Source: Centroscyllium fabricii (lineage: Eukaryota). Taken from it: 64,000 nucleotides of DNA. The stretch is from NCBI GenBank assembly GCA_051313645.2, contig JBNRSN020000020.1, forward strand, positions 52,452,001-52,516,000, in the 5' to 3' direction. Of the stretch, positions 14,186 through 64,000 are shown piece after piece (position 1 is the stretch's first letter; each line of letters opens with the position of its first letter). The notes beneath the pieces were generated by a model. The model worked only from the letters and a program-made list of their open reading frames with translations. It was not told where the DNA came from and ran no database searches. The position numbers and the translations under genes were made by a program.

Positions 14186-15954
14186 ATAGTATATCCAAAG
14201 GCGGCCAACTCCATCCTCCAGAGTTGAATTTTATTATTTTTGATTTTGGTGCGCTTCTGGTTATCCAACATTTAGGCCATGGAATGCTGGTCAGTTCTGA
14301 GTGTAAACTGATGACGAGCAAGAAAATTACTCCATTGGACCACAGCTTCGATGATGGCTGTGGCCGGGGGGTAATGGAGCTCGCTACCCTGCAAGGTTCA
14401 GGATAGGAATGCCACAGGTTGTCTACCTTAATTCAGGGTAGCCGAAATCGCTACCTCTGATGCATCACACTCGACCACAAAGGGAAGGTTCTCGTCAATA
14501 GAGCGAAGCGTGGCTTTCTCCAGCTGCCGTTTGAGGAGGTTGAAGGCTGAAATAGTCGTTGCGTCTAATGGAAAGGACTTCGCATGAAGCAGGGGTTTTA
14601 TTTTATCAGAGAAGTGAGATAAATACTTTGCGTAATAAGCAAACATGCCAAGTGCCTGACGAAGTGCGCCGAGATTTGTAGGAGGAGGGAGCTCCTGAAG
14701 TAGACGAAGTCGCTCTGGGTCTGGTTTAATGACACTATTGCCCACCCACTAGCCAAGAACCTTAACCGATGGCACCGATTACACCGATTTAGGTTCGTTT
14801 AACGTTAAGTGGCGACGGCGGAGAACGTTACAAAATTTCCGAAGGTTGGCGTCGTGCTCCTTCTGATCATGGCTGGCAATAGTGATATTGTCCAAATACG
14901 GAAAACTATCCGTCAAGTTCTCTTGCCTGACCAATCCATCCATAGCTCATTGAAAGACATTGGTGACCCCAAATGGAAGGCGATGAAAGTGATAAAGCCG
15001 ACCACTGGCCTCAAAGGCCGTATACTTCTTGTCTGAGTCTTTCAGTGGTACCTGATGGTATGCACTTTTCAAATCAAAGGTTGAGAATACCTTGTATTTG
15101 GCAAGGTTGTTGACCATATCATCTATGCGTGGAAGTGGGTAGGCTTCCAGATCAGTACATTGGTTGAGAGTCTGCGAGTAGTCGATACACAGGTGTTTTT
15201 TATGTTGTTTTAAAGGGTTCTTCAGAACGACGACTTGAGCCCGCCAGGGCGACGAACATGGCTCAATGATTCCGGCAGCTAAGAGGCGAGAGATTTCTGC
15301 CCCGATAAATGCTCGATCATCCTGGCTGAAACGCTGTGATCTGGTGACTATGGGTTTACAGCGGGGGAGAGGGGGGAGATTGGAAAATATGGAGGTCTCG
15401 CCGAGCAAGGCCGCCTAAAGTGCACAAAACGGTGCCTTAGAAATAGTAAGCTCCGGCCTCGACCCTCTAAACTCAAAAGTGAGTCTTTTGTGCTGCTTCT
15501 GGAAATCTTGTCCCAGAAGTACATCACTGCATAAATCTTCGAGTATTCCAAGCCGGGTGGAGGAATAGGTGCGGCCATTGAGGATGAAAGTGACAAGACA
15601 GAATCCAGATTAATTGGTAGTCAGAGTCGTCAAAGCCATTGCAATCTCTCTATCTGAGGGATAAATATGCAGTTTTAACCTGCAGACAGCCCGCTTACTG
15701 ATGAAGCTGTCAGAGCTGCAGGAGTCAATTAACACACTCAGAGTGACCGAAACCATCGTGACTGCATAGGACAGACTTTGTGGAAAAACAGCTGTGCTGG
15801 GGGAGGGGCAATTTTATCCTCAGCAGCTGTAGCCGTAGTGTTTCTTGGGGGAGGAGCAGTTCCATAGAGGGCAGCTGTGAAGCTGACAGGAGCTCTCGAC
15901 CGGTATACTCTGGGGGAGCGGCCTTTCTTGTTAGCAGAGGATTTCGACTGGCAT

Positions 15955-16835
15955 ACCTGTATTGCTTTACTTAGCCACGGATGGCTGTTTTTTCTTTCAC
16001 GCCCCTTTTTACTTAATGGAATATATTTTTCTTGAAAGTTCAGAAATATCTCCTTGAATGTACACCACTGCTCATTTACCGTCCGACATTTTAATCTATT
16101 TCCCCAGTCCACTTTAGTTAACTCTGCTCTCATACTATCATAGTCTCCTTTATTTAAGCTTGTAACGCTGGTTTGAGATCCAACTCTCTCAACCTCCAAC
16201 TGTATTTGGAATTCAACCATGTTATGGTCACTCATACCAAGGGGATCCTTTACTAGGAAATTATTTATTAATCCTTTCTCATTACACAGGATCAGATCTA
16301 AGATTTTCTGCCCCCTGGTCGGTTCAGTTACATACTGCTCAAGGAACCCATCCCTAATGCACTCTATGAACTCCTCCTCGAGGTTGCCCTGCCCAATTTG
16401 ATTTGTCCAGTCAATATGAAAGTTAAAATCCCCCATGATTATAGCCGTTCCCTTATTACAAGCTCCAATTATTTCCTGATTTATACTCTGATCAACAGAG
16501 TTGGAACTGTTAGGAAGTCTATAGACCACACCCACTAGTGACTTTTTCCCTTTCTTATTCCTTATCTCAACCCAAACTGTTTCACTATCTTGATCCTTTG
16601 ATCCAAAATAATTTCTCACTATTGCAGTGATTCCATCTTTTATTAACATAGCTACCCCACCTCCCTTTCCTTCCTGTCTGTCCTTCCTAATTGTCAAATA
16701 CCCCTGGATGTTTAGTTCCCAGTCATGGTCACCTTGCAGCCATGTTTCTGTAATGGCCACCAGATCATACCCATGTGTAGTTATCTGTACCCTCAACTCA
16801 TCTATTTTGTTACGAATATTGCGTGCATTCAGATA
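15955..16835 (-). mobile_element. CR1 endonuclease fragment inserted in Gypsy gag
   Basis: YLNARNIRNK, AITETWL, GGGVA, MGDFN, LDLIL, SDHNMV motifs inside chimeric ORF 15738-16895. Confidence 0.85.
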
Positions 16836-18943
16836 TATAATCATATATAATAATATATAATCATATACGTGAGGGGACACGTAGTTGATAAGCATTCATA
16901 ACTTAATAGAGGCATCTGCCCCACATTCTTCAAGAAAGTTGCCAAAAGTACAAAACCAATGCTTCCATTCTTTTGCTGCTGCAGGCGCATTCAGGTCCAG
17001 GTCGAGATGGGTGGGTCTCAAGAGTTTTTCCATGATGGATCAATTTCCTGGCCAGATTCCTTGTCTGAATCACCCAAAGTATGGAGGCGATACTTAGTCG
17101 AATACATTGGTGTAATAAAGACTTACTACGCTCTTGGTTGAATATAAAGCAAGGCTTTATTCAACTTACAACAAAACATAGAGAGAGCTAGTTAGCAGTC
17201 ACTAGCTTCCAGGTTTCAGATTGTCTCCGGCCAAGGTGGCCCCATGCCCGAGTATTTATATTCCTTGGATGGCGCCCTGAGCTGGCGGTCCAGTAACACT
17301 TCCTGAGTTATTTCTAGAGTCGTGATTTATGACACCCATCGCTCCTCAAGAGATGTAATTCTATTCTGAACACTCACCATGTGTTCCATACCCTGGTGAC
17401 CTATCTCCTCCATGGCCATAGCCATCCTCTCAATGACTGCAGCCATCCTTTCCATGGAGGTTGCCATCCTTTCCATGGTGATGGGTTCATGTGCCAATGA
17501 CTCCACAAAGGCTTTGCTCATGTTTGCTATGGACTCCTCCATTCGCTCCACACTCGCAGCGACCCTGGAAACAAAACCTGACAGAGACTCCTGTATCTGT
17601 GAATGGAGTTCCATCACCTCTGATCTTTCAGATGGACCAAGATGCAGAGCATCGACATGCAGCTGAGCCAAGATTGCAGAGTCCTGCACCCTCTGACTAG
17701 GACTCTCCACTGCTATCCCTGTCTCCACAATCTGCTGATGCTCACTTATGAGCTGTGATACACCAGGTGACAACACTACTCTATGTCCCAAAGGTCCCAC
17801 TGAGGTGTGCATGTCTGCGCTGATGCTGGGTGCGCTGAATTCTGCTGACGCTGCACCCTCAGAGGTTGGAGCTTCCTCTGAGGAGTCTGGCTGCTCAGCC
17901 TCTTCCTCCTCCACAGTGGGGGTGGGGGCTCTTTATGGTCCTGTGGGGGAGTAAAGGAAAGAGTTAGAGATGTGATGCCAAGGTCACATGCACATTGCAT
18001 TTTGCAGATGATCGTAAGTCCATACGATGTAGCTTCAGAATCATTATCTGCAAGTCATGCGATGTCACTGAGAGAGATGGAAAACGATTGTCACCAGCTT
18101 GCAAGGATGCACCTCTCTCTCCTTCCCCAACTTTCAGAGACGCATCATCATCGACAATTTCCATGACTCCTTCCACCCTGGGGGTGAGGTGGGCCAATTT
18201 GTCACTGTTGTCTGGTGCTTTGTTCAGGTGAATGATCTAAGCTTCTGTAAGCTCTGCTGCCCAAAAACTGCACCAGCCCTTGTCTGAGTTTGCATTGAGT
18301 CATGAATCCCAAACCTTGGCCAGCCTAAACACTCTGGTGATTCACCCATGTTTCATAGCACCAAATTCAGCTCTTAATGAATAGAATTCTTGATGCTTGG
18401 AAGTCACAGTTTCAGAAGTTCAGGAGCAATATTTCAAGATGCACAAAACAAGGTGTGGATGTCAATCTTTACAATTGGCCACCACAAGAGGGGGTTAATA
18501 TAAAACTGGTTACATACAGCAGTACAGTAGAACAAAAGTAGTTTGAATGCAATAGTGTGAATAGACTGCCTCACATTAACACAAACTATAGCTTCTGCTA
18601 CATTCTATTCCTAGAAGGTTCCCCCTTTAGTGCAGTAATACTCGTTAAATACTGTGACATCACCCCTCACCCCTCTTCCCCACACACAAACAAACACCCA
18701 CCTGCCTCAGCTCATTTGCTGCTGAAACTCTCGTCCAAGCGTTTGTTAACTCTAAACTCAACTATTACAATGGTCGCTTGGCTGGCCTCCCAACCTCCAC
18801 CCTCCATAAGCTTGAGCTCATCCAAAAGTGCGCTGCCCATAACCTAACTTGCATTAAGTCCCGTTCACCCATCACACCTGTGTTTGCTTACCTACACTGG
18901 CTCCCAGTCTGGCAGTGACTCAATTCTAATATTCTCTTCCTTA

Positions 18944-21495: not shown

Positions 21496-24400
21496 TATTG
21501 TATTTAAGTCTTTCTACTTAATGAGATGCCTCAAATCAAAGACGGCAGCGAGTTCTTAAATAAGTGGCTTTTATCAACAAGGAACAGAACCGAGTCCCCG
21601 ATGAGCCTGCCTGGAATGAGAGATAAGTGGGTGGAGCATTCTCCTTTATCCTAGTACCCAGAGGCAGGGTCAGCCGGTACAGGTCCTTACAGAAAGGTAC
21701 AGATATTAACAGATATATAACAAACACATTAAACAAAACTATATACAATAACCATACAGTGTGAACACACCAAAAGGTTCATCACACTTAAACACGAAGA
21801 TAATTCAAACTACAGAGCTGTAAAAAGCTGTCTAGTTTAATCAACTGTTAAAAGAGAAAGTGAAAGTAAAACGTAAAAGAACCTCATGGCTGTGCAGTGC
21901 TGTAGCAGCGCCACCACAGGTGGGAGGATAACACATACATACACATCATACATAACATATTCCTCCCCCCTTAAATAAAATGTCCCCATTATTCCTTAAC
22001 AAGTAAATTTCATCCAATGCACTCAATTAACTAAGGGTAGAGGTAGACTGCCTCAAACCCTGACTTTATCCTGGGGTTTATTCTGCCCCATTCTTGTGGA
22101 TAAGTCACTAAGCATACATATCCAAGCATCTTTGAGGCCGCCGCTCTCTGATAGGATACCAGCGGGCATCGCTGGCGTCAACAGCAGTAGACATTGACAC
22201 AGGACTGGATGGAGAAGGTGCCTGTGTTAGTCAAATGTCAGGAGTTTGTACAGGTGGAACAGTCTCTTTGACTTCCTGTGTTGGAGAAGAGTACTGTGCA
22301 GAAGGATGCTGGTTTGTGGTGTCATCCGGAAAACGTTCAGGCCGATCAGCCTTTTTAGCCTCGGTGGCTGTCTCTGCTCCTAGCAACAGTTGATCAGTGT
22401 GGCTTCTCCAGATGACGTCCTCAGCAGTCTCAATCGTGTACGACACAGGGCTTGTCTGCGTGATCACCGTAGCAGGAACCCATTTCTGTCCAGTGTTGTA
22501 GTTTCGAGCTAAGACTTGCCCTTCAGGGTGAAACCGTCACTCCTTGGCTCTTATCTCCCTTCTTTCAACTTGAGCTTGTTGTTGACGTTGGACAACCTGC
22601 ACTATCCTTGGAGGTTTGAGTAAGTCAAAACTTGTCCGCAACTGCCTCTTCATCATGAGCGAAGCGGGGGAAGTTTTGGTTGTGGCATGCGGCTCGTTCC
22701 TGTAGGACAACAGGAATCTGTTGAGACGTTGGTGGATTGAACCCTGACCTTGCGAGCCTTCAAGTTGTGCTTCAAGTTTTGCATGAACCTTTCTGCCAGG
22801 CCATTAGTAGAGGGATGATAGGGCGCAGACCAAATGTGTTGGACACCATTCACTTGCAGGAAAGTTGCAAACTCCTGTGACACAAATTGTGGACTGTTGT
22901 CACTTATGAGTTGCTCTGCTGAGCAATAAAGGCTGAACATCTCACCGAGTTTCTCAATTGTTTTCTCTGCCGTGGTAGACCTCATCACAGCGACCTTCGG
23001 CCACTTGCTGCGAGCATCCACAACCACTATAAACATCTTCTCTTCGAAAGGACCGGCGAAGTCCACATGTACGCGCTGCCACACTTTTTCAGGCCAATCC
23101 CAGGGGTGTAAGGGTGCCAGCTGTGAAACATTCCTGACCCTTTGACAAGGGGAACATGCTTTGGCCTTCTCCTCAATGTTTCCATCGAGACCTGGCCAAC
23201 AGAAATAGCTTTTGGCCATATCCTTCATCCGAACCATTCCACTGTGGCCTGCATGAAATTGTTGCAGTACAGGTTTCCTCAGAGGTGGCGGAATGATGAC
23301 ACGGTGTCCCAAGAGAAGACAATCTGCCTGGACGGAGAGCACATTTCGTTTTGAAATGTAAGGTTTCAACTGAGGAGAATCTCCTATAGCTCTCCCTCGA
23401 ATGCCATTGTCCATTACCTCAGACAGAACTGGATCGTTGCGGGTGTACCTTCGCACCTGAACTGCAGTGACAGGTGCTCCCTCAACTTGTCTGAAGTAGA
23501 AGGTGTCTATCTGATGAGGCTCTGGGTGAGTAACAGGCAAGGGCAGCCTTGAGAGACCGTCTGTGTTGCCATGCAATTCTGATTTACGATATTTGATGTT
23601 GTATGTGTGTCCTGACAACATCAAAGCCCATCTTGCCACCCTGCTTGCAGCGAGAGATGGAAATCCGGTGTGGGGCCCAAAGATTGATGTCAAGGAATGA
23701 TGGTCCATCAGGAGTGTGAACCTTCTCCCAAACAAGTACTGGTGAAATTTTCAAATTCCAAAAACGATTCCCAATGCCTCACGCTCAATCTGTGCATAGT
23801 TACTCTCAGCCTTGTTCAAGGTGCGTGATGCGAAGGCGATAGGTTGCTCTTCACCAGAAGGCATGATGTGAGATATGACTGCTCCCACCCCATATGGTGA
23901 TGCATCACATGCTAGCTGCAAGGATAGCTTTGGGACGAAGTGTGTCAGGACCTCCGACTTCAGCAATGTATATTTGCTTGGGCGAAAGTTTCATTGCACA
24001 GCGCAGTCCATTTCCATGTTTTGCCTTGACATAGCAACTGGTGTAACAGCTTCAGCAATGTTGCTAAGTTTGGAATAAACTTTCCATAATAGTTAAGTAG
24101 CCCCAGGAATGAACGTAACTGGCTCACATTCTGGAGTGTTGGGGCCTCCACGATCTCCTTGACCTTTGATGACACCTTGTGCAGGCCAGTAGCGTCAATC
24201 ACATGCCCCAGGTACTCAACAGAAGACTGAAAGAATTCACATTTGTCCTACGAACTCTGAGTCCGTACTCTTTCAGTCGCTGTAGTGTCGCATTCAAATT
24301 CAGAAGATGATCCTCCTCATTTGCTCCAGTGACAAGGATGTCATCCATGTAGCACTGGATTCCTGGCAATCCACTCAAAATTTGCTCCATTGCCCTTTGG

Positions 24401-43262: not shown

Positions 43263-43369
43263 AAAATGTTTCCACTTGTGGGGGAATCCAACACGAGAGG
43301 TCATTAATATAATATGGTCACTAATAAATCTAATAGGGATTTCAGGATCAACTTCTTTACCTAAGAGCG

Positions 43370-44787
43370 TGTAAGGGGTTTGGCAGCCGGCCTTCTCCAG
43401 GCTCGACCTAGAGTCCCTGCGCCTTGCCTTGGTCCCGCGACCAGGCCTCGCACACCGGGTCCCTGTGAGCGGTTCGAAACGCTCCCCCCTACGGTTCTCG
43501 ACACTGGGCTTATGTACAGGAGTTGTGATAGTGTAGGTAATTCCTGCCAGAACAGAGTTCCAAGAGACCAGAGATGTGATGTTTAAAACACAGTTCTTTA
43601 TTACACATTCAATAGTTTACAAAAGTAGAACCAAACGTTAATCATTGTTAAAACAGGATGGAGAGGGTACGACACAACGTAACATTGGGCAAACATTAAA
43701 CAGCTACACCCCAATATGCTTCCACGACACCCACCCTCCACTTCCTACACTATCCTATGTCCAGACGTGCAGAAGCGGAACACCATACTCACCATGGGCT
43801 ATGTTTACTGGGGGTTCGGGGTTCGTTGGTTGCACCTCCTTCGTCCTTCGATTAGGTAGCTGTGGAAGGGGCTCTCTCTCTCTCTCGCTCTTCCGCCTTC
43901 CTGGCTTCCTGGCACCGACTTCTGATGCAGGCAAGCACTTTTCTAGCTGATCTCTAACCGAGTGCACCTTTCTTTCTGGTTCAGACCTCCACTGCTTCTC
44001 TCCAGCTCTTACTTTTAAATCGATACAGTTACTGTTTCTGGCTATTAACTGCCATCAGCTCTTTGCTTGAGCTCTCGTTCTTCAGTTCGTCAGTCTGTTA
44101 GCTTCCTAGCTCATCAGTTCCCCTCTGTCCGACTCCCTCTGTCCGTTGTTTTTCTTAGTTCAAAACCCTGGGCCGTTATACCCCCGCACCTCGCGCTTAT
44201 CTGCGCGCCAGATCTAGAGTGCCCTTTTGTCTTTAAGTGAGGTTAGATCTGTTCTTTTCTGTTCTGATCGTCGCCTAACAGCCCGGTAATCTCCTGACCA
44301 CCTGTAAACGTCTTTCTCGTTAAGCGATCTCTGTGCAAAGCTTTTTCCCATCACCGGCCCTCGGGTTTCTATGGGCCTTTTGTTTTAGTTGACGAGGTTA
44401 CCTCGGTGCCCCTTGTCCAAATGCTGGACACCGGCGCCTCCCAGTCTGGGGACTCGATCTCGTTATGTGGGCTATTCATGACCAATATCCCAAGTCTGTC
44501 TGGTCATGATTTTGCAGAAAAATGTGTGTGTGGGGCTGTTTTAGCTTCACTCTGCCAGGCTGATCACGTGGTCAGCGAAGCCATTTTGTGGCCCCTGCTT
44601 GTGTCTGGGGTTTTCTTTTAAAATGTCTCTGGCTATGGTCCTTTTCCCCTGGTACAGAGCCACATCTCCGTACCTAGGGTGCCCCCCACATTATCGGTTT
44701 TAGCAAAAGCATGTTGCTTGCATTTCTGTGTTATGAAAAGTGTTGATAGTAGTTCTGGATCCGGGAAACATCAGCTCAAATCTTACA
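43370..44787 (-). repeat. 3' LTR
   Basis: TGTAAG...CTTACA inverted termini; minus-strand TATAA at 44176-80 and AATAAA at 43597-602. Confidence 0.95.
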
Positions 44788-44800
44788 GTCCCTCCTGTTT
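44788..44800 (-). other. Polypurine tract
   Basis: Minus strand AAACAGGAGGGAC immediately precedes TGTAAG of the 3' LTR. Confidence 0.7.
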
Positions 44801-45209
44801 GATTACACACACCCCAATATGTCGTAATCAAATTAAATTACGGTTGAGCTATGTTTTCCCGGTTGTCCACGTCCAGACCCCCACTATTTTACCTAAACTA
44901 GTGCCCAAGTACTTAACGTACAGTCCCCATCTTTCAGGCCGACCTATACATTACTGCCTTCCCGGGTCACTATATACACATAAACATTCCCCAGATTTGT
45001 GCCCGTCTTTCAAAACTTACACCCTTTTCCTCGGCTGATGCCGTCCGCCAACCGTCCTCCTGTCGGTGATCGTTTTATTGGGGCACAAAGATCAATACAT
45101 ACACCACAAAAAGAAAATACCTTCAAAACTTAAACTTAAATATATATACAGTGTTTTCAATGAGACTCTCTCACAGAGAGGTAAAATTGGAGGTGACTTC
45201 TTCCCCATG

Positions 45210-47456
45210 TCAGCAGCTTGTCTCTGCCTCCGGTTCGTCCGCCCTGACGTACCGGTCCCTCCATTCCCCTCTGCCTATCCGGCTGCGAAGCCGCTGTCTC
45301 CCTCTGCACTGTCCACATATTAAATAGAACACTATAAAAGCTTGCACCACCACTAACACGTGTGATGCAATTCTAACCCAAGATGGGACTTCTATATTAT
45401 TGAACAGGTCCCACCACGGGGGAACCACTATCTCCAATATGTCTGCCCCAATCTTATCTGTCTTCTGTTCCAGGGTGTAAAAATGCTTTTGCGATACGGC
45501 AACTGCTTTTAAAAGTGTTGTGAGGTGTTCGGGGAGAGGGGGTATGGCATACCCAAAATGCGCCACAAAGTGCTGCAGGTTGGTGAAATTCTCCCTTACA
45601 GTGATGTGAACCGTGGAGGGTTCAGGTATGGGGACGATTCGCAGCTGTGCCACTTGAACCTCTGCCTGTGGTTTAAAACAGAAGCTGCTGTCACTCACCG
45701 GACATAGGCCATGCTGCCCGTGTCGGTAGTGTTGCGCTGCAGTGGTAATACAGTAAGTACCACCCCCTATGTATGCCACCTGTGGAGGGACATGGTCCTG
45801 TGCCATCGCCTCCATAGTGCAATTCATAGGCTTCGCGCCAACAGCCCTGAACCCACACTGCTGTACCCGCAAGACATTCAAGTGCTGGGGACACAATATT
45901 ATATGTGCTCCCCTGCTCCGGCACCCCGAGAGGTCTGTACCTGTCATCGACTGCTCCCAGCGGACAACATACGGTGGGACCTCTGCGTAGCGAACGTGTA
46001 CTCCCCCCTGAATTACTCCGATGTTCTCCACCCTGTATACCGGTGCGGGCCTTGCCGTCTTGCCCAACACCGGCATCCGTACCACCACTCCCATGACCGT
46101 GTAATTAGAACGCCCACAGTCAATGGGAACAGGGTACGCCTCTGACGCCAACCTGAGCTGACACGGTGTAAGCGCGTTCTGAAAAGGCTGCAGTGCTTGG
46201 AGGTGTTTGTTACTGATCCAGGACGGGACCAACCCTTGCTTCAGGTCCTCAAGGTTGCTGCGGCCCTCGCCCAGCAACCACGCCCCGTACAGAACGCACA
46301 CCTCGTTCTGCGCAGCCTGGTCAGAAGCGTTCCGATCTTCCTTGATCAGAGCGTTCACCGTGCTCGCGTGTCTTTCTAATTCCGCGATTATCTCGCGCAG
46401 GTGCAGTGTCATCGCCTGGTCCTCATGGAGCTCCGACCCGACGACCTTGTTCTCCTCCGTGAGGATGTCCTTCAACTGCGACTTTAAACCGTTTATCTGG
46501 GTCTGCAGCTCCATGGTGTCGAGAGCGTTGACCACAGAGGCTCCGGTGTTAAAGCCCGTGAACGCATCATTCACTACACCCCTCTTTTGTCTCCCCGTTT
46601 GGCCCCATGTCTCTGGCCCTTGGCGGTACAGGCTTGCCTTGTCTACACTGGCCAGGTCAAATTCGTAAAACTGCCTGTACATATTTGCCAGCAGCACCTG
46701 ATATAACCTTTCGGTCTCCTTGGGGCACCACTCCGGCAACCTTACCTCGGTGAGGTTTAAAATCACCGAGGCCACCGTGTAGTGCACCCCCTGGTATAAT
46801 ACCTGATCTGTTGGTATCAATACCAGGCCATTCTCGGGCCCCCGTGTAGTCTTGGGGCACCCACCCTCCTGTGCTGCTGCCCGCCTCGGTGTGGGAGGTG
46901 TTGTGCGTGGTCGGGTGACGAGTTCAGTGGCGTTAACTGGGCTCGGGGAAAATGGGACCCCACAGGCTTGTGAGCTAACATCCCACCTCATCCCCTTACC
47001 ACCATCTTGCCACTGCTGGTGGAAAAATATGCTGTTCCCTGTGGGGCACAAATACCTGGAACCCCACATACACACATAAATTCCCTCATCAGGCTCCCAC
47101 CACTTGTCCCAACAGACACTCAAACTTTCATTAGTCCCAAAGACTGTCCTGTGAGTGTTGTTGTCCAGCTTTTCCCAATTCACGGTTGAGTTGACCATGG
47201 TCCGGCTGGTTTTCCGTAGCCACCACCTCAACCGGGTGTCGACCTTTCCGGTGCACCTCAGGCAAATCCTCTTGCCGGCCGTGACGCTGATCTTCTGGGC
47301 GACGATCTTCACTTTTGGGCACAATAACTCAGTGTCCCTGAAGAAAAAATCCTGGGGTGCCGAGATACTCAGAAGCGTTCGATCCCAGCCACCCTGGCCA
47401 TCGCCCCTGGTGGAAGAAAACGGCAGCTCCTTCGGTTGTCCGTTGTCCCATCCCAT
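45210..47456 (-). CDS. env: Env: Ig V-like domain + Pro/Thr linker + class I F-type fusion glycoprotein
   Basis: C68-W78-DEGIYVC129 Ig pattern; furin RQKR (46581-92) then GVVNDAFTGFNTGASVVNAL; heptad helix; Cys cluster DLSGC..ILCP..QC..NCT; second heptad; TM IASHVLVVVQAFIVFYLICG; basic tail; several NxS/T sites. Confidence 0.85.
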   Translation of the reverse strand: MGWDNGQPKELPFSSTRGDGQGGWDRTLLSISAPQDFFFRDTELLCPKVKIVAQKISVTAGKRICLRCTGKVDTRLRWWLRKTSRTMVNSTVNWEKLDNNTHRTVFGTNESLSVCWDKWWEPDEGIYVCMWGSRYLCPTGNSIFFHQQWQDGGKGMRWDVSSQACGVPFSPSPVNATELVTRPRTTPPTPRRAAAQEGGCPKTTRGPENGLVLIPTDQVLYQGVHYTVASVILNLTEVRLPEWCPKETERLYQVLLANMYRQFYEFDLASVDKASLYRQGPETWGQTGRQKRGVVNDAFTGFNTGASVVNALDTMELQTQINGLKSQLKDILTEENKVVGSELHEDQAMTLHLREIIAELERHASTVNALIKEDRNASDQAAQNEVCVLYGAWLLGEGRSNLEDLKQGLVPSWISNKHLQALQPFQNALTPCQLRLASEAYPVPIDCGRSNYTVMGVVVRMPVLGKTARPAPVYRVENIGVIQGGVHVRYAEVPPYVVRWEQSMTGTDLSGCRSRGAHIILCPQHLNVLRVQQCGFRAVGAKPMNCTMEAMAQDHVPPQVAYIGGGTYCITTAAQHYRHGQHGLCPVSDSSFCFKPQAEVQVAQLRIVPIPEPSTVHITVRENFTNLQHFVAHFGYAIPPLPEHLTTLLKAVAVSQKHFYTLEQKTDKIGADILEIVVPPWWDLFNNIEVPSWVRIASHVLVVVQAFIVFYLICGQCRGRQRLRSRIGRGEWRDRYVRADEPEAETSC

Positions 47457-47801
47457 CGGTCGCGGTAGGCGCGGTGCTTCCCGAACATCCGTATACCACG
47501 ATGTCCTGGGTGCGGCCCCGATAGGCCCACCCGCATCCGATCGGCAGGAAGATGATTCCCCATCTTAGTGCCTCGTTCGGTTCCTGAAACAGATAACGTT
47601 GGTATAGCCAGCCTCTCCAAGAGCGCTTGGCTGTGTTAAAGACCCATGCTTGGGTCTGATGACCCCAGCCAGTACCCCGCATCTGCACCCTGGACACATT
47701 GCCCCTTTTACCTAACCCAGTAAAATATAACTTAACTTACCACTAAACTTCTTAAAACTACCTCGCCTATAATACAGCGCCGCCCTTCCAAGGCGGCCAG
47801 G

Positions 47802-48755
47802 CTAATCCTGATCCAGGCTGCAGCGCGCCGCTGTCTGTGGCTTGGCCGTGCTGCCTGCATCCTTTGAAGTGCCGCAGCCTGTGGCTGCCTGCCAGTGACC
47901 ATCTTCCTTTCTCCAACCCGACAAACTGCCTGTCGCTGGGGCCCCGTACCATTCCGGCCAAAGCTTCCTCAGTTGAGGTATCCTGCTGGACCTACGGAGA
48001 GTCACCTCAGGCACGGCCCCCTGGGCAGCCCGGTTGAGGACAGGTTCCCGCCGTGCCGCAGCTCGGGTGACCCCCGCAGCTGCCGACCCCGGCCTTTCCT
48101 CATCCAGCACTACCCCCTTGGGGCTGGGTATATCCGCGGCTTCCGACCTCACCCTGTCTGTGACAGGTGGTGAGTCTCCGCCCGCTACCCCCGCCTCCCT
48201 GGTGCTTGAGTCGAGGATGCTCTCGTCATCCCCCTCCGACTCCCACTCCTCCGTCATGAGATTCAGCCCCAGACCGAGCTGATCAGGCTCGTCTTCGTCT
48301 GAGTCCCATCCAAACCGGGACGCCCTCCATTGCTGGGAAACGTCTTCCTCCTTTCCCCTCACGCAGGCAGCTTTACCCACCTGCGTGACCTTCCTCATTT
48401 TTGGCTGTGATTCTCTATCCACAGGGCTTGCCCCTGTGACTGACCCCTGTTTTACCTGCTGCAGCTGACCTGTTGCAGCCTTTGAGGTTTTAAACTCCCT
48501 TTTCACTTCAGCTGCCTGGGTTTTTGCCTCCAGGCTAAACAGCTTGCACCTGCTGTGAAGCATTTTAAAAACCTTGAGTTCTTCCTCTAAACTGCTAGCT
48601 TTTGCCGCTAGCCTGTCATTCTCTTTCCTTAAAGCCCGTTCCACGACCTGAGCTCCTGCAACCTGGCACCCCAGGAAGTCCTCCAAATTACCGGAGGTCT
48701 CTTCCTCTGCATGTCTTTCCGAGGGAACCGGGTTGACAGGCTGCGCGGGCTCCAG
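47802..48755 (-). CDS. ORF2: 317-codon open frame, in frame behind the gag stop (coiled coil + acidic/low-complexity; function unknown)
   Basis: No stop between gag TGA (48756-58) and the annotated 47802-48686 ORF, which starts at TTG rather than ATG. Confidence 0.6.
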   Translation of the reverse strand: MEPAQPVNPVPSERHAEEETSGNLEDFLGCQVAGAQVVERALRKENDRLAAKASSLEEELKVFKMLHSRCKLFSLEAKTQAAEVKREFKTSKAATGQLQQVKQGSVTGASPVDRESQPKMRKVTQVGKAACVRGKEEDVSQQWRASRFGWDSDEDEPDQLGLGLNLMTEEWESEGDDESILDSSTREAGVAGGDSPPVTDRVRSEAADIPSPKGVVLDEERPGSAAAGVTRAAARREPVLNRAAQGAVPEVTLRRSSRIPQLRKLWPEWYGAPATGSLSGWRKEDGHWQAATGCGTSKDAGSTAKPQTAARCSLDQD

Positions 48756-50522
48756 TCACTGGGGAATGTCCGGTGTCCCCCCCGCACCCGGGGAGCCGGT
48801 GGCGACTGCAACCTTCCCTTGTGCTTCCATGAGAGACAGCATCACCTCGATCATTGACTCCAACGTTTCGGGCTTAACGGCTATCTCGGCGCGCGGAGCG
48901 GGGTTGGCCCTAACCTCCTTGGGGAAAGCCCTGCAGTCTTTCCTCCAGTGCCCCACCTTACCGCACCTAAAACACTTGGACTGTGCGGCAGGGTTGCCCT
49001 CCTGACGCCATTCCTTCAGGGCCGATGTAACGGCCTCCGCTACGTGCACCTTCCCCTTGACCGACTTGGTGGCGGTGCTCCGGGTGTTCCGATACCCCAC
49101 GGTGAGGCAGTCCAAAACCGCGTCCTCCGTGGTGTTCGTTGGGTCGAACCAGGCTTTCGCCTGCTCCCGGACAGCTGCTAGGCTGTTCGTTACCAAGCAC
49201 CGAAGCCACTGCGCCCTAACATTTCCGACCAGGGCATCCCGGTTCAGGACCTGCGGGCAGCTACGTTGGTAGACCGGCCACAGTCTCGCCGCAAAAACCC
49301 TCGGAGGTTCTCCCTCCATCTGGAGAGTTTTCCCCAAGCGGGCAAATGGACCCTCATCGTCCGTGCCTAAAACCTCCAGAACCTCTTCCCTTAACTGTTC
49401 GTAGGTTCTGGTACCCCGTTTGCTCTCATCACTGAGGCACTGAAGGAATGAGTAGTCCAGGGAGAACAATAGCATCCTCGCCTGCTCCCCCTCGTCGCAA
49501 CCATTGATTGCGGCGGTCTGCTCAACCTCCTGAAAATGCAGTGAAGGGTCCCCCGATTCGGACAGCTTCCTGACTTGCCCGACCATGGACCTCAACTGCT
49601 GGGCGCTGTGGGGCACTATAATCTGACTTTGGACAGGCCCGGGATCCCCGTTCGCTGCGTCGGGTCCCCGCCTGGTCTCCAGCAATGGACACATCGGTGC
49701 CTGCGCCGGTTCCCTGGCCGGTCCCCCCCCCTGCTCACTCTCCCCAGCGCCCCCCTTCTCCCAGGAAGCCTCATAGCTGGGGGGATCGTGATACGTGGGG
49801 GCCGAAGCCACCACGGGCATGCACGGACCCCTTGCTGGAACCCTTGCCGCTGCCAGTGATGATCCCACTGCGGGGTTCATAAGGCAGACCAACCCACTAG
49901 CCCTATCTAAGGCGCTGCGCAGGCTTTCGATCTCCTCCCTACAAGCCCCGTGATCAGCCCCTTCGGACCGATCCTCCAAAGCCATTTTATAGGCTGCTTT
50001 AACCCCCCGGAGAGTCTCCCCTGTGGCCCCCAACTGTTGGTCTAGGCCGGCACACCGCTGCCTAATTGCGCCCTCACTGAGCTTAGCGTCAGTGATCTGG
50101 CACTCCAACAGTTCAACCTTGGCCTCATAGCGGTTGACCAAAACCCGGCGCTCCTTGTTCAAGGAGTCCAGGGCCTCGATCAACTGGAGCCCTCCCTCAG
50201 CCTTTTCACTCACCTCCTCACGGAGGTTCCCTATCTGGGCTGCCTGCGCTGCCACTACACGGTCCAGGAGCTGGACCTGCTTCTTGTAGCACGACAGCCA
50301 GACGGCCTTTTCTACCAATTTCTTGTGTGCCTTGCTGGACGTCCACCGGATCGCTGCATCCAGTGGGCGCTTGTCTTCCAGCAACTCACACATCCATGAC
50401 TTGGTCAGATTGACCTTGCTGAACACATAGTCGGCCATGCGTTCATCCATCATATCCTTAGTTCTTACAACCGTTTCTGGCACACTATCATCCTGTTGCC
50501 AGTGTCCCTTCGTGATCGCCAT
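48756..50522 (-). CDS. gag: Gag polyprotein
   Basis: N-terminal coiled coil, PPSY late motif, capsid-like region with MHR-like LQMEGEPPRVFAARL, knuckle CFRCGKVGHWRKDC. The first ATG overlaps the PBS, so the true start may be MMDERM near 50453. Confidence 0.88.
   Translation of the reverse strand: MAITKGHWQQDDSVPETVVRTKDMMDERMADYVFSKVNLTKSWMCELLEDKRPLDAAIRWTSSKAHKKLVEKAVWLSCYKKQVQLLDRVVAAQAAQIGNLREEVSEKAEGGLQLIEALDSLNKERRVLVNRYEAKVELLECQITDAKLSEGAIRQRCAGLDQQLGATGETLRGVKAAYKMALEDRSEGADHGACREEIESLRSALDRASGLVCLMNPAVGSSLAAARVPARGPCMPVVASAPTYHDPPSYEASWEKGGAGESEQGGGPAREPAQAPMCPLLETRRGPDAANGDPGPVQSQIIVPHSAQQLRSMVGQVRKLSESGDPSLHFQEVEQTAAINGCDEGEQARMLLFSLDYSFLQCLSDESKRGTRTYEQLREEVLEVLGTDDEGPFARLGKTLQMEGEPPRVFAARLWPVYQRSCPQVLNRDALVGNVRAQWLRCLVTNSLAAVREQAKAWFDPTNTTEDAVLDCLTVGYRNTRSTATKSVKGKVHVAEAVTSALKEWRQEGNPAAQSKCFRCGKVGHWRKDCRAFPKEVRANPAPRAEIAVKPETLESMIEVMLSLMEAQGKVAVATGSPGAGGTPDIPQ
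50504..50521 (-). other. Primer binding site, tRNA-Arg(UCG)
   Basis: TGGCGATCACGAAGGGAC lies 5 nt after the LTR; 17/18 complementary to the vertebrate tRNA-Arg-TCG 3' end GTCCCTTCGTGGTCG-CCA (tRNA sequence recalled, not looked up). Confidence 0.8.
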
Positions 50523-50526
50523 AATC

Positions 50527-51944
50527 TGTAAGGGGTTTGGCAGCCGGCCTTCTCCAGGCTCGACCTAGAGTCCCTGCGCCTTGCCTTGGTCCCGCGACCA
50601 GGCCTCGCACACCGGGTCCCTGTGAGCGGTTCGAAACGCTCCCCCCTACGGTTCTCGACACTGGGCTTATGTACAGGAGTTGTGATAGTGTAGGTAATTC
50701 CTGCCAGAACAGAGTTCCAAGAGACCAGAGATGTGATGTTTAAAACACAGTTCTTTATTACACATTCAATAGTTTACAAAAGTAGAACCAAACGTTAATC
50801 ATTGTTAAAACAGGATGGAGAGGGTACGACACAACGTAACATTGGGCAAACATTAAACAGCTACACCCCAATATGCTTCCACGACACCCACCCTCCACTT
50901 CCTACACTATCCTATGTCCAGACGTGCAGAAGCGGAACACCATACTCACCATGGGCTATGTTTACTGGGGGTTCGGGGTTCGTTGGTTGCACCTCCTTCG
51001 TCCTTCGATTAGGTAGCTGTGGAAGGGGCTCTCTCTCTCTCTCGCTCTTCCGCCTTCCTGGCTTCCTGGCACCGACTTCTGATGCAGGCAAGCACTTTTC
51101 TAGCTGATCTCTAACCGAGTGCACCTTTCTTTCTGGTTCAGACCTCCACTGCTTCTCTCCAGCTCTTACTTTTAAATCGATACTGTTACTGTTTCTGGCT
51201 ATTAACTGCCATCAGCTCTTTGCTTGAGCTCTCGTTCTTCAGTTCGTCAGTCTGTTAGCTTCCTAGCTCATCAGTTCCCCTCTGTCCGACTCCCTCTGTC
51301 CGTTGTTTTTCTTAGTTCAAAACCCTGGGCCGTTATACCCCCGCACCTCGTGCTTATCTGCGCGCCAGATCTAGAGTGCCCTTTTGTCTTTAAGTGAGGT
51401 TAGATCTGTTCTTTTCTGTTCTGATCGTCGCCTAACAGCCCGGTAATCTCCTGACCACCTGTAAACGTCTTTCTCGTTAAGCGATCTCTGTGCAAAGCTT
51501 TTTCCCATCACCGGCCCTCGGGTTTCTATGGGCCTTTTGTTTTAGTTGACGAGGTTACCTCGGTGCCCCTTGTCCAAATGCTGGACACCGGCGCCTCCCA
51601 GTCTGGGGACTCGATCTCGTTATGTGGGCTATTCATGACCAATATCCCAAGTCTGTCTGGTCATGATTTTGCAGAAAAATGTGTGTGTGGGGCTGTTTTA
51701 GCTTCACTCTGCCAGGCTGATCACGTGGTCGGCGAAGCCATTTTGTGGCCCCTGCTTGTGTCTGGGGTTTTCTTTTAAAATGTCTCTGGCTATGGTCCTT
51801 TTCCCCTGGTACAGAGCCACATCTCCGTACCCAGGGTGCCCCCCACATTATCGGTTTTAGCAAAAGCATGTTGCTTGCAGTTCTGTGTTATGAAAAGTGT
51901 TGATAGTAGTTCTGGATCCGGGAAACATCAGCTCAAATCTTAAA
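50527..51944 (-). repeat. 5' LTR
   Basis: Copy of 43370-44787; outer terminal C>A change at 51943. Confidence 0.95.
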
Positions 51945-53112
51945 AGCGGTAAGAATGTGGAACGTGCTACCACAATGAGTAGTTGAGGCAAATAGCATCG
52001 AGGCACATAAGGGAAAGCTAGATAAGCACATGTGGGAGAAAGGTATAGAAGGATATCCAGACAGGGTTAAATGAAGTGGGGTGGAAGGAGGCTCGTGTGG
52101 AGCACAAACGGCGGCATAGACAAGTTGGGCCGAATGGCCTGTTTCTGTGCTGTACACTCAATGTTACGCGATGTAGATCCTGTCAAACACCACACTTTTG
52201 CCACCGATGGAATGGGCAGCTCAGTGGCCTCTTCCATATCTCTTTGGCTGTTCCATGATGTTCAGCCATTTTCCACCATTATTCTCTACTGGAACAGCTA
52301 GATTTTCATCCTTCTAAAATTCATATGGGGAAGTGGTTTATTTGCTGGCTCAGACATGTGTAAAATTCATAAATTCAGGTGCATCATGATTGACGGCCAC
52401 TTTTGTGTTGCTGTTTAGGAATTAACACTTTTCATAGTTAGTGATCCACTAAATATTCAAGAAACAAACTTTATGGCAGTTTTTGCAAACTGATTAAGGT
52501 TAGGCCCCTTATTTTTTAGTTTGTGATCTGATATTTGAACTTTGTCATAGTGAATAATTAATCTGTAGAGATCTTTAAAATCATTTCTTTTGTTATTAAT
52601 TTCCAGTAAAAAATAAATCGCAGATTGGTGGATCAGTAAAATACTGATGTCTGTCTGATTATGGCATGCAATGAGACAAATTCTCCCTGAATTTAGTCGA
52701 TTCCAAGATAATGTCACTATCGCAATGCGCATCCTTCTCAAGTACTGGCTTTCCACCCCAATTCTGGAAGGTAGGTAACTTGAGGTACATTTTTATGCAT
52801 TAAAAAGTGTTTGAAGTGTTTGAAAAGGAATTTAACTCTTATCTCATGACTACCATACCTGATCTGTCATGACAAAAGGAGAATGAAAGTTGTATTTAAC
52901 GAGGCATTGTTACAAAGTTCTGATCGCTGGCCATTGAGGCACCTGACTGAAAGACACCACTAATCCACATCCAAGATACTCAGTTAAGCAAAGGAACAGC
53001 ATTCATACAAAAGCAAAATACTGTGGATGCTGGAAATCTGAAATAAAAACAGAAAACGCTAGAAATACTCAGCAGGTCAGGCAGCATCTGTGGCGAGAGA
53101 AACACAATTAAC

Positions 53113-60217: not shown

Positions 60218-61711
60218 ATGAACAGGAGGAGAGCAGGACAATCTGGCAAGGCCAAGGGACGCGGCAAAGCCACCAAGCTCGCCCCAGAGCTGATTGAGGA
60301 CAGCCCGAGGGAAGCAGCTGTACCTCCACACATCACTCCACCACATGTGGCCGAACCAGATCTCCCCTCGACAGAGGAGGAGCGCCCGCTGGAGTTTGAA
60401 GACCAGCCGGGCGTGGTCGAGAACGAGGCCGACCATGCTGCCGAGGTGGAAGCTCCTCCATCCCCTGTGTCCCTGGGGTCAAAGCCAAAGAAGGCGAGGC
60501 TCCAGTCTAACCTGAGTCCAGAAGAACAGGAGGAGGTAACTGATATATTTATAACTGATAATCCTTTTTTAATAATCACTATCGTCAATTTGATTTTGTT
60601 TACAACTATATTAATTTTATTCTAGGTGGCCCTCTTTCTGGAAGCCCATGACTTCATTTTTAACAAGAGGCGTGAGGACCACTGCTTCGCTGGCCGTAAA
60701 AACAAGGCGTGGGAGGACCTGGCCAACAGGATGGGCAAGCAGGTCAAGGCACTGACCACTTTCTTTGAGAGCATGCGGACGCAGGTGGGGAAGATGAGGA
60801 TTACAAAGAGTGGCCAGGGAACGATGGAGCTGACAGAAAGGCAGGAGTGGATCTGGAAACGCTTCCAGTTCCTGGTACCACACATCAGCAAGGTCATCAG
60901 GCGGAATGTGCAGGGCCTCAAGCCTCCTACCACACAGCCGGCTCGTGGAGATCCAGAGAACAGGGATCATGAGGTGGACCTGCAGGAGGCTAATGTCACC
61001 ACGCCACCGTTCCCCATCACCCCAACCTCCTGCATCACCACCGCCAGCTGCTGCAGCTGCAGAGGAGGAAAGGGGAGAGTGGCAGCAATGGAGGAAGAGG
61101 AGGACATTGCAGGGGATATTCGCAAGTCAAGGGAGAGGCAGATGGAGCTGCTGGATATCCTTAAATCACACCCTCTTCATGCTGTTCCCTTTCCGGAGCG
61201 CCTCAAGTACGCCGAATATATGGGGCATGCCTTTCAGCGATTGTCCACCGCTAGGTACATTGAGGTGAGGGACAAAATTTGGCAGATCATCTCGAGCACA
61301 GATAAGGAGATGGATGAAATGCAGCATTCCCACCAGGCAGCATCGCTAGGAGCACCTGCACCAGAACCAGCTGGCTATCGACAGAGACCATTCAGCTCAT
61401 CCACCCTGCCCATGTATCCTCCTCCTCCTCCTCCTCCTCCTCCATGGAATCAACCCTACCAGCAGCAAGGCCAGTGGCCGTTGCAGCAGTCGCAGTGGCA
61501 GCCAAGGCCTGTGGTTCATTCTGCTTGGCAGCCAGTGGAAACGCCGTGGATGTATCAGCAGCCAGGAACCTCCAGGCACAGTGAAGCCGCCACGGTCAGG
61601 AACGTCAGTCCAGCAGCAGAAAGCCAACAGCCAGACACGGGTGCACTAGTGGAGGATGTAGTTGTCAGCCTCTCTGATTTTAGCAGTGATGTGACCGAGT
61701 TTGAGGTCTGA
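60218..61711 (+). CDS. MADF/Myb-SANT-like DNA-binding protein, 2 exons (60218-60535, 60626-61711), 467 aa
   Basis: GAG|GTAAC donor and TTCTAG|GTG acceptor, 90-bp AT-rich phase-0 intron; joined LSPEEQEEVALFLEAHDFIFNKRREDH..KNKAWEDLANRMG..FESMRTQVGK is MADF-like. Confidence 0.82.
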
Positions 61712-62306: not shown

Positions 62307-63617
62307 TCACACTTGCTTGTTCAGTCCTGCCAACCTCTCCTGCCACGGAACAGATCCTGCAGGACTGTTGAAGTAAGCCGTGAGGTACTCCCTCTGGCTC
62401 TTGGCCACCTGATGGTCTCTGTTGCGTGCATAGGGGTAGGGAACCGCGGGCATCTGCATGCCGTCCCTCCAGGCTCCAGGGATGATGTTGTGGTTGTCAT
62501 CCTCGTGGTCCACCTCAGCGTTTCCAATGGCGGGGAACCTGATCCTCATGAGGTTGTGAAGGAGGACAGCTGTTTCCACCATGGTGCGCACCGTATCTGG
62601 ATGTTGTTCCAGGGTTCCATGGAAACATCTCCATCTGCTGGCCATGATGCCAAAGCCATTCTCCACCACGCGTCTGCCCCTTGAGATTCGGTAGTTGGCC
62701 ACCATCATCTCATCACTGAGACCCCTCCTGGAGTAGGGTTTCATGAGGAAAGTTCTGAGGCCAAAAGCATCGTCTCCCAGGATAAAGTAGGGCGTGTCTC
62801 TGTCATCATTAGGCAGAGGGTCGTCGTCAGGGAAGTGGATGGTGTGGTCATCGATGCATTCCCTCAGTTCTGAGGCCCCAAATATCTGTCCATCAGATTG
62901 ATGACCTTCTCCACCAGTGTCAATCCAGATAAACTTATAATCAGCATCCACCATGGCCAGCAGAACCACGGAGAAGAAGCCCTTGTAATTGTAGTACAGA
63001 CTGCCGGACTTGGGTGGTTTCTTGAGGGCTATGTGTTTGCCATCCAAGGCCCCCAGGGCATGAGGGACATTCCACCGGTCGTGGAACTGCTGGGCAATGG
63101 CTTTCCAGTCCTCCTGGGTCTGGGGCAGTGGCATGACCTCGTCCTTTAGCGTTTGAATGATGGCATGGCATACCTCCTTGACGATCACTCCCACGTTGCT
63201 CCTGCCACATCTGAAGTCGTAGTGGAGGGTCAGGTACCCGTCTCCTGTAGCCAGGTGTCTGAGGGTGAGGGCCAGCTTCAGTCCAGCTTCTAGGGGTGGT
63301 CTCAGGCGGGTGTGCTGCCTCTGGATGACAGGGGTGATCCTTTGGAGGAGCTCATCAAACATCTGGGGTGGCATTCTTACATAGTTGGTGAAGGAGTTCT
63401 CATCCTCCAGCCTCAGCTCCTGCAGCAGTCTGTTGTAGTGCCCATGTTCTAGCCTTCTAGCAGGTGTCATCCATGGTCGAACCCACCAGCGCTTGCATCT
63501 TCTCTGTCTTCCTGTGGGATCCCTTCTTCTGCTGTTCAGAGCTACCAGCAGTTGGTCTAGATGTTGGTACTCTATTTCCATGGCAAGAGCAAGACATCCT
63601 ATCAGTTCAAAATCCAT
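62307..63617 (-). CDS. Intact Harbinger DDE transposase, 436 aa
   Basis: LKLALTLRHLATG, GALDGKH, YNYKGFFSVVLLAMVDADYKF, SDGQIF, LGDDAF, RRVVENGFG, LHN. Confidence 0.93.
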   Translation of the reverse strand: MDFELIGCLALAMEIEYQHLDQLLVALNSRRRDPTGRQRRCKRWWVRPWMTPARRLEHGHYNRLLQELRLEDENSFTNYVRMPPQMFDELLQRITPVIQRQHTRLRPPLEAGLKLALTLRHLATGDGYLTLHYDFRCGRSNVGVIVKEVCHAIIQTLKDEVMPLPQTQEDWKAIAQQFHDRWNVPHALGALDGKHIALKKPPKSGSLYYNYKGFFSVVLLAMVDADYKFIWIDTGGEGHQSDGQIFGASELRECIDDHTIHFPDDDPLPNDDRDTPYFILGDDAFGLRTFLMKPYSRRGLSDEMMVANYRISRGRRVVENGFGIMASRWRCFHGTLEQHPDTVRTMVETAVLLHNLMRIRFPAIGNAEVDHEDDNHNIIPGAWRDGMQMPAVPYPYARNRDHQVAKSQREYLTAYFNSPAGSVPWQERLAGLNKQV

Positions 63618-64000
63618 TGTGCAAATGACCTTCTCAACCTGGGGTCAGGGTTTTTTTATACCTTTCGGCCACCATGAATATGCCCGAATGTCAAGAACGA
63701 TGCCGAATATCGTAAACTATTCGTAGCTAATTCGTAGTAGTCGTAACTTCATCGTCGAGGTCGTAGTGGATTCGAACAATCATTCGGCACATTCGTAAGT
63801 GGGTCACACCTTATTCGTGCACTTCTTACCTGATTCTTTGACTTCGTACTTGTTTCTTAATCCATTCCTGACATTCGGCATATCTTTCAAGCCGAATCTC
63901 CAAGAATCTTTCATTACACCTTCGTACCATCTCCCGAAAAGCCAAGAAATGAACACGAAATTTGACTTTTTTTCCCGAAACGCAAGAAATTTCGATTCGG

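Follow-up and report, generated by a model that had tools for sequence, protein, structure and literature searches.

The best explanation of the env-bearing reading frame described here, to which we assign a rough probability of 0.55, is that it lies in a defective copy of a cartilaginous-fish endogenous retrovirus (ERV) whose sibling copies encode an F-type envelope protein (Env) capped by an immunoglobulin (Ig)-like domain, with a role for that domain in attachment. The copy was found in a stretch of 64,000 nucleotides of the Centroscyllium fabricii genome, hereafter the window.

Structure of the provirus and its family

The env-bearing open reading frame (ORF) forms part of an LTR retrovirus that occupies positions 43370-51944 on the minus strand of the window. 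Over 1416 aligned bases the two LTRs show 5 mismatches (99.65% identity), and the provirus is flanked by a 4-bp target-site duplication; exact 4-bp duplications were also present at three of four apparent solo LTRs with both flanks readable. The 18-mer pattern of the primer-binding site had 1,485 exact matches genome-wide, as compared to none for a reversed control. The features outside env are as follows:

43366..43369, no strand: 4-bp target-site duplication (second copy at 51945-51948)
43370..44787, minus: 3' LTR, ending in TG...CA
44788..44800, minus: purine-rich tract preceding the 3' LTR
47802..48450, minus: C-terminal tail of pol, equivalent to aa 1228-1442 of sibling Pol (96% identity)
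48451..48777, minus: 327-bp segment replacing PR-RT-RH-IN, in frame after the gag TGA
48756..50522, minus: gag ORF, 588 aa from ATG, with a CCHC zinc knuckle (PF00098, E 1e-5, over cut-off)
50504..50521, minus: primer-binding site for tRNA-Arg(TCG), one mismatch to a tRNA gene of the same genome
50527..51944, minus: 5' LTR, ~1418 bp, terminal TG altered in the window copy

The first ATG of gag (50520-50522) overlaps the primer-binding site, so the Gag start is uncertain and that ATG is a putative one. The flanking parts of the window are repeat-rich and contain other long open frames of 361-445 codons (15738-16895, 22653-23750, 60626-61711, and 62307-63644).

At least 150 copies of the family, 98-100% identical across the Ig region, were counted in the 7.2 Gb genome; the number is a lower bound, from 150 scored of 6,892 candidates. 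The LTR flanks differ from copy to copy, and the copies are therefore separate integrations. The family is young, high in copy number, and massively amplified in this genome. Some copies were observed ~11 kb or 7 kb apart (G000:C1044:224693236-224726975; G000:C1:587232073-587241372), a spacing that suggests tandem proviral arrays.

The window copy is defective, being both pol-less and frameshifted in env. PR, RT, RH, and IN are absent between its gag and env, and the 327-bp segment found in their place was present in 18 of 30 env loci (the best 30 of 60 listed), the window copy included. The segment gave no match to sibling Pol; an older family copy (L037) has a 75% match on the upstream side of env. 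In this subfamily gag and env were kept and pol was lost, the 327-bp segment being fused to the pol tail. The integrase C-terminus lies just upstream of env in 11 of the 30 best loci, and one further locus is a deletion form.

The env frame is broken at a homopolymer run, near which (at 47344) the contigs of all four runs compared differ from the window. A signal-like segment, a stretch of ~67 aa, and the Ig motif share one frame in 26 of the 30 best env loci; the window copy is among the other four. Unbroken env frames of 841-919 codons were found in 25 of the 30, a share biased upward by the choice of these loci by score (best 30 of 60 listed). The env architecture is real at the level of the family and broken in the window copy, which, unable to make the annotated Env, would depend on pol-bearing siblings for its mobility. 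Contigs of three runs were also observed to join 45524 to 46833, with the F core removed and the N-terminal module kept; a related species may carry an amplified deletion form with this join.

The Env reading frame and its fusion core

From its ATG the env ORF extends for 748 codons (47456-45210, minus strand). The earlier note had read it as an Ig V-like domain fused ahead of an F-type fusogen, and the motifs it relied on are present: the Ig-type KISVTAGKRICLRC at aa 55-68 (47294-47253), a C-strand Trp in LRWWLRK at aa 76-82, DEGIYVC at aa 123-129 (47090-47070), a Pro/Thr-rich stretch at approximately aa 171-199, a furin-type RQKR at aa 289-292, and one TM peak at approximately aa 696-714. 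The CX6CC motif that marks gamma-type Env has, as the note held, no match in the ORF. The start of the ORF was not confirmed: aa 1-33 lie upstream of the break near 47344 and are off-frame because the env of the window is frameshifted there. A signal peptide is missing from the 748-aa product (its highest Kyte-Doolittle 13-mer is 0.96, as compared to 1.83 in sibling L003), whereas a sister-family env (L146) begins with a plain signal peptide at the corresponding place; the TM segment is present in the window copy, which lacks the in-frame signal seen in 26 of 30 loci. The fusion peptide proposed after RQKR is no more than mildly hydrophobic, with no 19-mer there exceeding 1.5, and is the weak point of the F-type assignment. 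The features of env are as follows:

47524..47682, minus: probable env leader with signal-like hydrophobic segment, in another frame than the rest of env here
47351..47523, minus: conserved pre-Ig segment on the upstream side of the break (~67 aa in siblings; pLDDT 27-39)
47344..47350, minus: frame-break site, a homopolymer run in the window env
47016..47321, minus: probable Ig-fold domain, ORF aa 46-147, with Cys68, Trp78, Cys129, and extra Cys65 and Cys115
46860..46946, minus: Pro/Thr-rich linker, aa 171-199
46593..46859, minus: F2-like segment, aa 200-288, beginning CPxxxxGPxxGLV (aa 200-212)
46581..46592, minus: furin-type site RQKR, aa 289-292
45372..46580, minus: F1-like ectodomain with weak fusion peptide, HRA (aa 295-406), Cys-rich beta domains, and HRB (aa 643-675)
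45315..45371, minus: TM segment, ~aa 696-714, with a 34-aa tail after it that ends at 45210

Few parts of the ectodomain are as poorly conserved as the linker, which is 41-59% identical between families.

The claim of an F-type fusogen was borne out by structure prediction. An AF2 model of aa 197-700 (32 sequences; mean pLDDT 69) has an F-like three-domain fold with HRA and HRB, and Foldseek returned 255 PDB matches at E ≤ 0.001, the best of them a paramyxovirus F (hPIV3, E 7e-13); RSV, NDV, and henipavirus F were matched as well. By VIA the highest Z was 11.7, for NDV F, and foamy Env scored 8.6. Predicted viral structures that match the core include baculovirus F, lispi/arlivirus glycoproteins, and the Envs of walleye epsilonretrovirus and foamy viruses. 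Against PDB sequences the family profile matched foamy gp130 at E 1.7e-4, foamy Env being the sole match at E < 0.002. The whole ORF returned no Pfam family at E ≤ 1 and one chance match among PDB sequences, and Pfam returned no fusion family for the F core; among 17 relatives, P0034 alone touched Baculo_F (E 0.0011). On its predicted fold, the env core is almost certainly an F-type (class Ib) fusogen. It has in common with paramyxovirus and pneumovirus F the core fold, furin site, HRA/HRB, and TM; it differs from them in sequence (~8-16% identity) and in its N-terminal module, which they lack, attachment there being the task of a separate protein.

Fold and origin of the N-terminal domain

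The N-terminal domain carries the B-strand Cys, C-strand Trp, and DxGxYxC of an Ig domain, with 61 residues between the cysteines and 10 from Cys68 to Trp78. Across all six reading frames of the window, a loose C..W..DxGxYxC pattern (written after the motif had been seen) has a single match; when the ORF was shuffled 20,000 times, the pattern turned up in 15 of the shuffled versions. Searched alone against PDB sequences, the domain gave 18 matches at E ≤ 10, 16 of them to the Ig superfamily (E 0.13-1.7); the best match of a 26-sequence family profile was the CRTAM V domain (E 0.019), aligned across the whole domain. Pfam Ig_3 was detected in 9 of the 26 members at E ≤ 0.1 (best 0.0027) and V-set in none at that threshold; no Pfam Ig family passed its cut-off (for Ig_3 the window domain scored 12.2 bits against 30). 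Atlas scores of 0.88-0.90, a lead level, fell mostly in Ig clusters. A model of the module from a natural sibling had a mean pLDDT of 42 (49-68 over the Ig part). With this low-confidence model, Foldseek returned Ig targets throughout, but at E values of at least 1.6e-3, with nothing at E ≤ 0.001, and although Ig folds dominate the VIA matches, Z was at most 8.0, a level that the tool calls common, and transglutaminase N-terminal sandwiches top the list. Profile-profile comparison with host V and I profiles was marginal, with a probability of 4-7% and a score of 18.9, as compared to a maximum of 17.3 among 30 shuffles and to 17.8 for a reversed control.

None of these scores is strong. That none passes a cut-off, that pLDDT is low, and that transglutaminase sandwiches head the VIA list would also suit a convergent resemblance, in which a different Cys/Trp-rich beta domain carries a DxGxYxC-like motif by chance. 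We consider convergence improbable: five methods, partly dependent on one another, lean to Ig and to nothing else, Ig strand order and motif register agree over ~95 residues, and the extra cysteines suit the Ig register. Cys65 and Cys115, both at least 90% conserved in the family, fall in the alignment at positions 20 and 74 of an antibody light chain, which lie opposite each other on strands B and E; provided that the Ig register holds, the two cysteines would therefore form a second disulfide. The N-terminal domain thus has, with good confidence, an Ig fold. It may belong to the V-set, as first proposed, or to the I-set: beyond the Pfam result, the profile-profile alignment was longer against the I-type than the V-type profile, and the C' and C'' strands are not resolved in the low-confidence model.

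Capture from a host Ig domain is plausible, but a donor gene was not found among 59 host V/I domains (best E 0.007); these were 59 of 60 taken from the same genome, the best 30 + 30 of 150 + 150 listed. The domain could instead be of long viral standing, a module handed from one retroviral env to another and not acquired from this host lineage, a possible but doubtful origin drawn in part by analogy with the IgV-like receptor-binding domain (RBD) of gammaretroviruses. Such an origin would account for the lack of a close host domain among the 59 tested or among 48 matched proteins, for the lineage-specific extra Cys and Trp residues of the domain, and for the sharing of the module by shark and ray families at identities down to ~40%; transfer of RBDs between Env groups is described in the accessible part of a preprint (bioRxiv 10.1101/2024.03.17.585361). 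The domain showed no detectable similarity to other viral modules, however, and the CEACAM/SLAM-like V domain of one relative (P0037) suggests host capture within the group.

Sharks, rays, and frogs are the sources of the Env relatives that could be named, a ray and a sawshark giving the closest; this agrees with a cartilaginous-fish host. Two word-indexed searches for homologues yielded 4 and 10 matches, and every named match was to a cartilaginous fish. Names were looked up for 20 of the 48 matched proteins, and no teleost loki Env could be recognised in the set. Two bacterial-looking repeat proteins in the set (P0030, P0047), which had matched the Ig stretch via summed repeats, were excluded from alignments.

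The F core seems able to accept caps added at its N-terminus. In relative P0045 the module is absent and the core motif comes right after the signal. Of eight lokiretrovirus Envs viewed, seven show the N-terminus; none of the seven has a module, and each begins, straight after the signal, with a motif that by eye resembles CPxxxxGPxxGLV. Other relatives carry four other N-terminal modules, which the family profile does not detect: a CEACAM/SLAM-like V-set module in P0037 (Pfam V-set E 0.0015, Atlas 0.93), a weakly Ig-like one in P0012 from Chiloscyllium (labelled Ig-like in UniRef), one Ig-like by eye only in P0019 and P0038, and a Cys-rich one in P0011 and P0022. In a quick tree of the F core, relatives with different modules fall on separate branches, and the sister pair P0037/P0045 differs by the presence of the module. 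A common origin with the Chiloscyllium-type module was considered on the basis of a suggestive W-x-x-(F/W)-W-x-x-x-x-G motif but found no support (hhalign probability 0.3%).

Between families of this genome, dN/dS was 0.22-0.29 for the module and 0.04-0.11 for F1 where computable, dS being saturated in many segments; the module is under purifying selection yet changes faster than F1. A second family (L066, L146) was observed with env frames of 789-790 aa; identity was 77% across the Ig part and 86% across the F core. Separately, a distant lineage is represented by an intact 851-aa env frame among broken relatives (L046; G000:C933, ~116220600-116223200, minus strand), with 45% identity to Chiloscyllium P0012, flanking Gypsy-like elements, and an integrase remnant alone upstream; it is a candidate for a co-opted env.

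Retroviral affinities and proposed role of the module

Sibling copies encode Pol in frame after the gag TGA, with RT, tether, RNase H, integrase, and an SH3-like end; a DTG protease motif is visible in the translation. The dual RNase H (tether plus RH) and the database matches, which are named NYNRIN-like, recall the lokiretroviruses, a known vertebrate group with F-like Env and an integrase related to CGIN1. The accessible part of PMC7947760 describes for that group a dual RNase H Pol and an Env composed, as here, of signal, F-like core, RXKR, coiled coil, and TM. Membership in it is nonetheless very unlikely. Dual RNase H is also found in all canonical retroviruses; sibling RT is 34-35% identical to four loki-type rows (assigned by motif match to the available part of the PMC7947760 supplement) as compared to 43-54% to frog, coelacanth, and ostrich rows; and its motifs are LPQGFHNSP and QYVDD instead of the loki CPFGYxNSP. 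A tree that forced the RT with the four loki-type rows was rejected (p-AU 0.007). The lokiretrovirus Envs viewed also lack the N-terminal module, and the portion of the PMC7947760 supplement (Wang and Han) available to us lists none of three cartilaginous fish genomes as positive.

Two quick RT trees, the second from 30 of 79 rows, place the sibling RT within canonical retroviruses (SH-aLRT 98-99), outside the group with gamma/epsilon-like rows; snakehead retrovirus (SnRV) is absent from the rows. The primer of SnRV is tRNA-Arg, and the family studied here has a tRNA-Arg primer-binding site, as expected of the SnRV-related clade. By eye, the sibling RT motifs match the SnRV sequence in the available part of the PMC7947760 supplement; the accessible parts of PMC6001957 and PMC8922424 assign SnRV to clade Huo. 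Judged from its sequence, the element likely belongs to this SnRV-related clade (Huo), and the range of F-type Env may accordingly extend beyond foamy viruses and lokiretroviruses to one more retroviral clade.

How the Env of a frame-intact sibling might work can be outlined from the biology of related proteins. It would be a type I glycoprotein with a signal peptide, a module of ~190 aa, a Pro/Thr stalk, and an F-type (class Ib) core. The core of the module would be a divergent Ig fold with a B-F disulfide and, probably, a second B-E disulfide, gained long ago from a host Ig-superfamily gene either directly or via another virus. By analogy with F, furin would cleave at RQKR, the module would stay on the F2-like N-terminal subunit, and HRA and HRB would refold into a six-helix bundle. 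The module may bind a cell-surface molecule and so provide attachment, as does the N-terminal part of the coronavirus spike or the foamy RBD. Such a role fits because of the position of the module, its stalk, its turnover, and its constraint; we favour it, by somewhat more than even odds, on position, linker, purifying selection, and analogy.

The module might, with the same Ig fold, serve as a cap or shield that steadies the prefusion trimer or hides it from antibodies, leaving attachment to the F core. The module-less P0045 and lokiretrovirus Envs imply that such a core can be encoded alone, the module has three N-glycosylation sequons, and the accessible part of the preprint cited above (bioRxiv 10.1101/2024.03.17.585361) argues that newly gained modules serve first as accessories. 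We nevertheless think a cap or shield unlikely, for the module stands on a flexible Pro/Thr stalk, as gamma-type RBDs do, and is replaced in related lineages by unrelated modules, as would be expected of a part that sets receptor specificity.

An attachment module of this kind would have several published counterparts, and the earlier note overstated the surprise: F folds with built-in RBDs and Envs bearing IgV have already been described. According to the available text of PMC11468914, F serves as a minimal scaffold to which receptor-binding modules are added N-terminally (coronavirus spike) or by insertion (foamy Env). Foamy Env (PMC11468914; PDB 8rm0, 8rm1) thereby resembles the Env described here in joining an F scaffold to a built-in receptor-binding module, whereas the foamy RBD has a large, novel fold and is inserted ahead of the furin site, and the module here is N-terminal, small, and Ig-like. 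The accessible part of Hotzel (bioRxiv 10.1101/2024.03.17.585361) describes the MLV RBD as IgV-like and reports SIRP-derived IgV on gamma-type Env. These SIRP-like IgV RBD/RBD-C Envs have in common with ours an N-terminal Ig fold, an extra disulfide, and proposed receptor binding; they are gamma-type with a donor clear by BLAST, unlike the F-type Env here, for which no donor was found. F-type Env is also widespread in the errantiviruses (bioRxiv 10.1101/2023.10.26.564294, accessible part), likewise LTR elements but with an invertebrate Ty3/gypsy Pol and no N-terminal Ig module described there. We found no published description of an Ig module on an F-type Env in a literature of which our coverage was incomplete, and the accessible parts of PMC9040795, PMC13709493, PMC12583693, and PMC12440569 contain nothing on Ig modules. 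F-type retroviral Env and captured IgV are thus each published, and their combination was not found within that incomplete coverage.

The family may have spread recently in cartilaginous fish because it is very young and abundant in this genome. The main value of the finding is a comparative series of capped and uncapped F cores: the same core occurs with no module, with Ig-like modules, and with a Cys-rich module, which makes the idea that F scaffolds gain modules testable by comparison. Tentatively, a widespread SnRV-related lineage of sharks, rays, and frogs may hold a minimal F platform that has more than once gained different domains of the host Ig superfamily as N-terminal attachment modules. 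If true, this natural series, which begins with bare F and leads to several capped forms, would show how spike-like, self-attaching fusogens arise.
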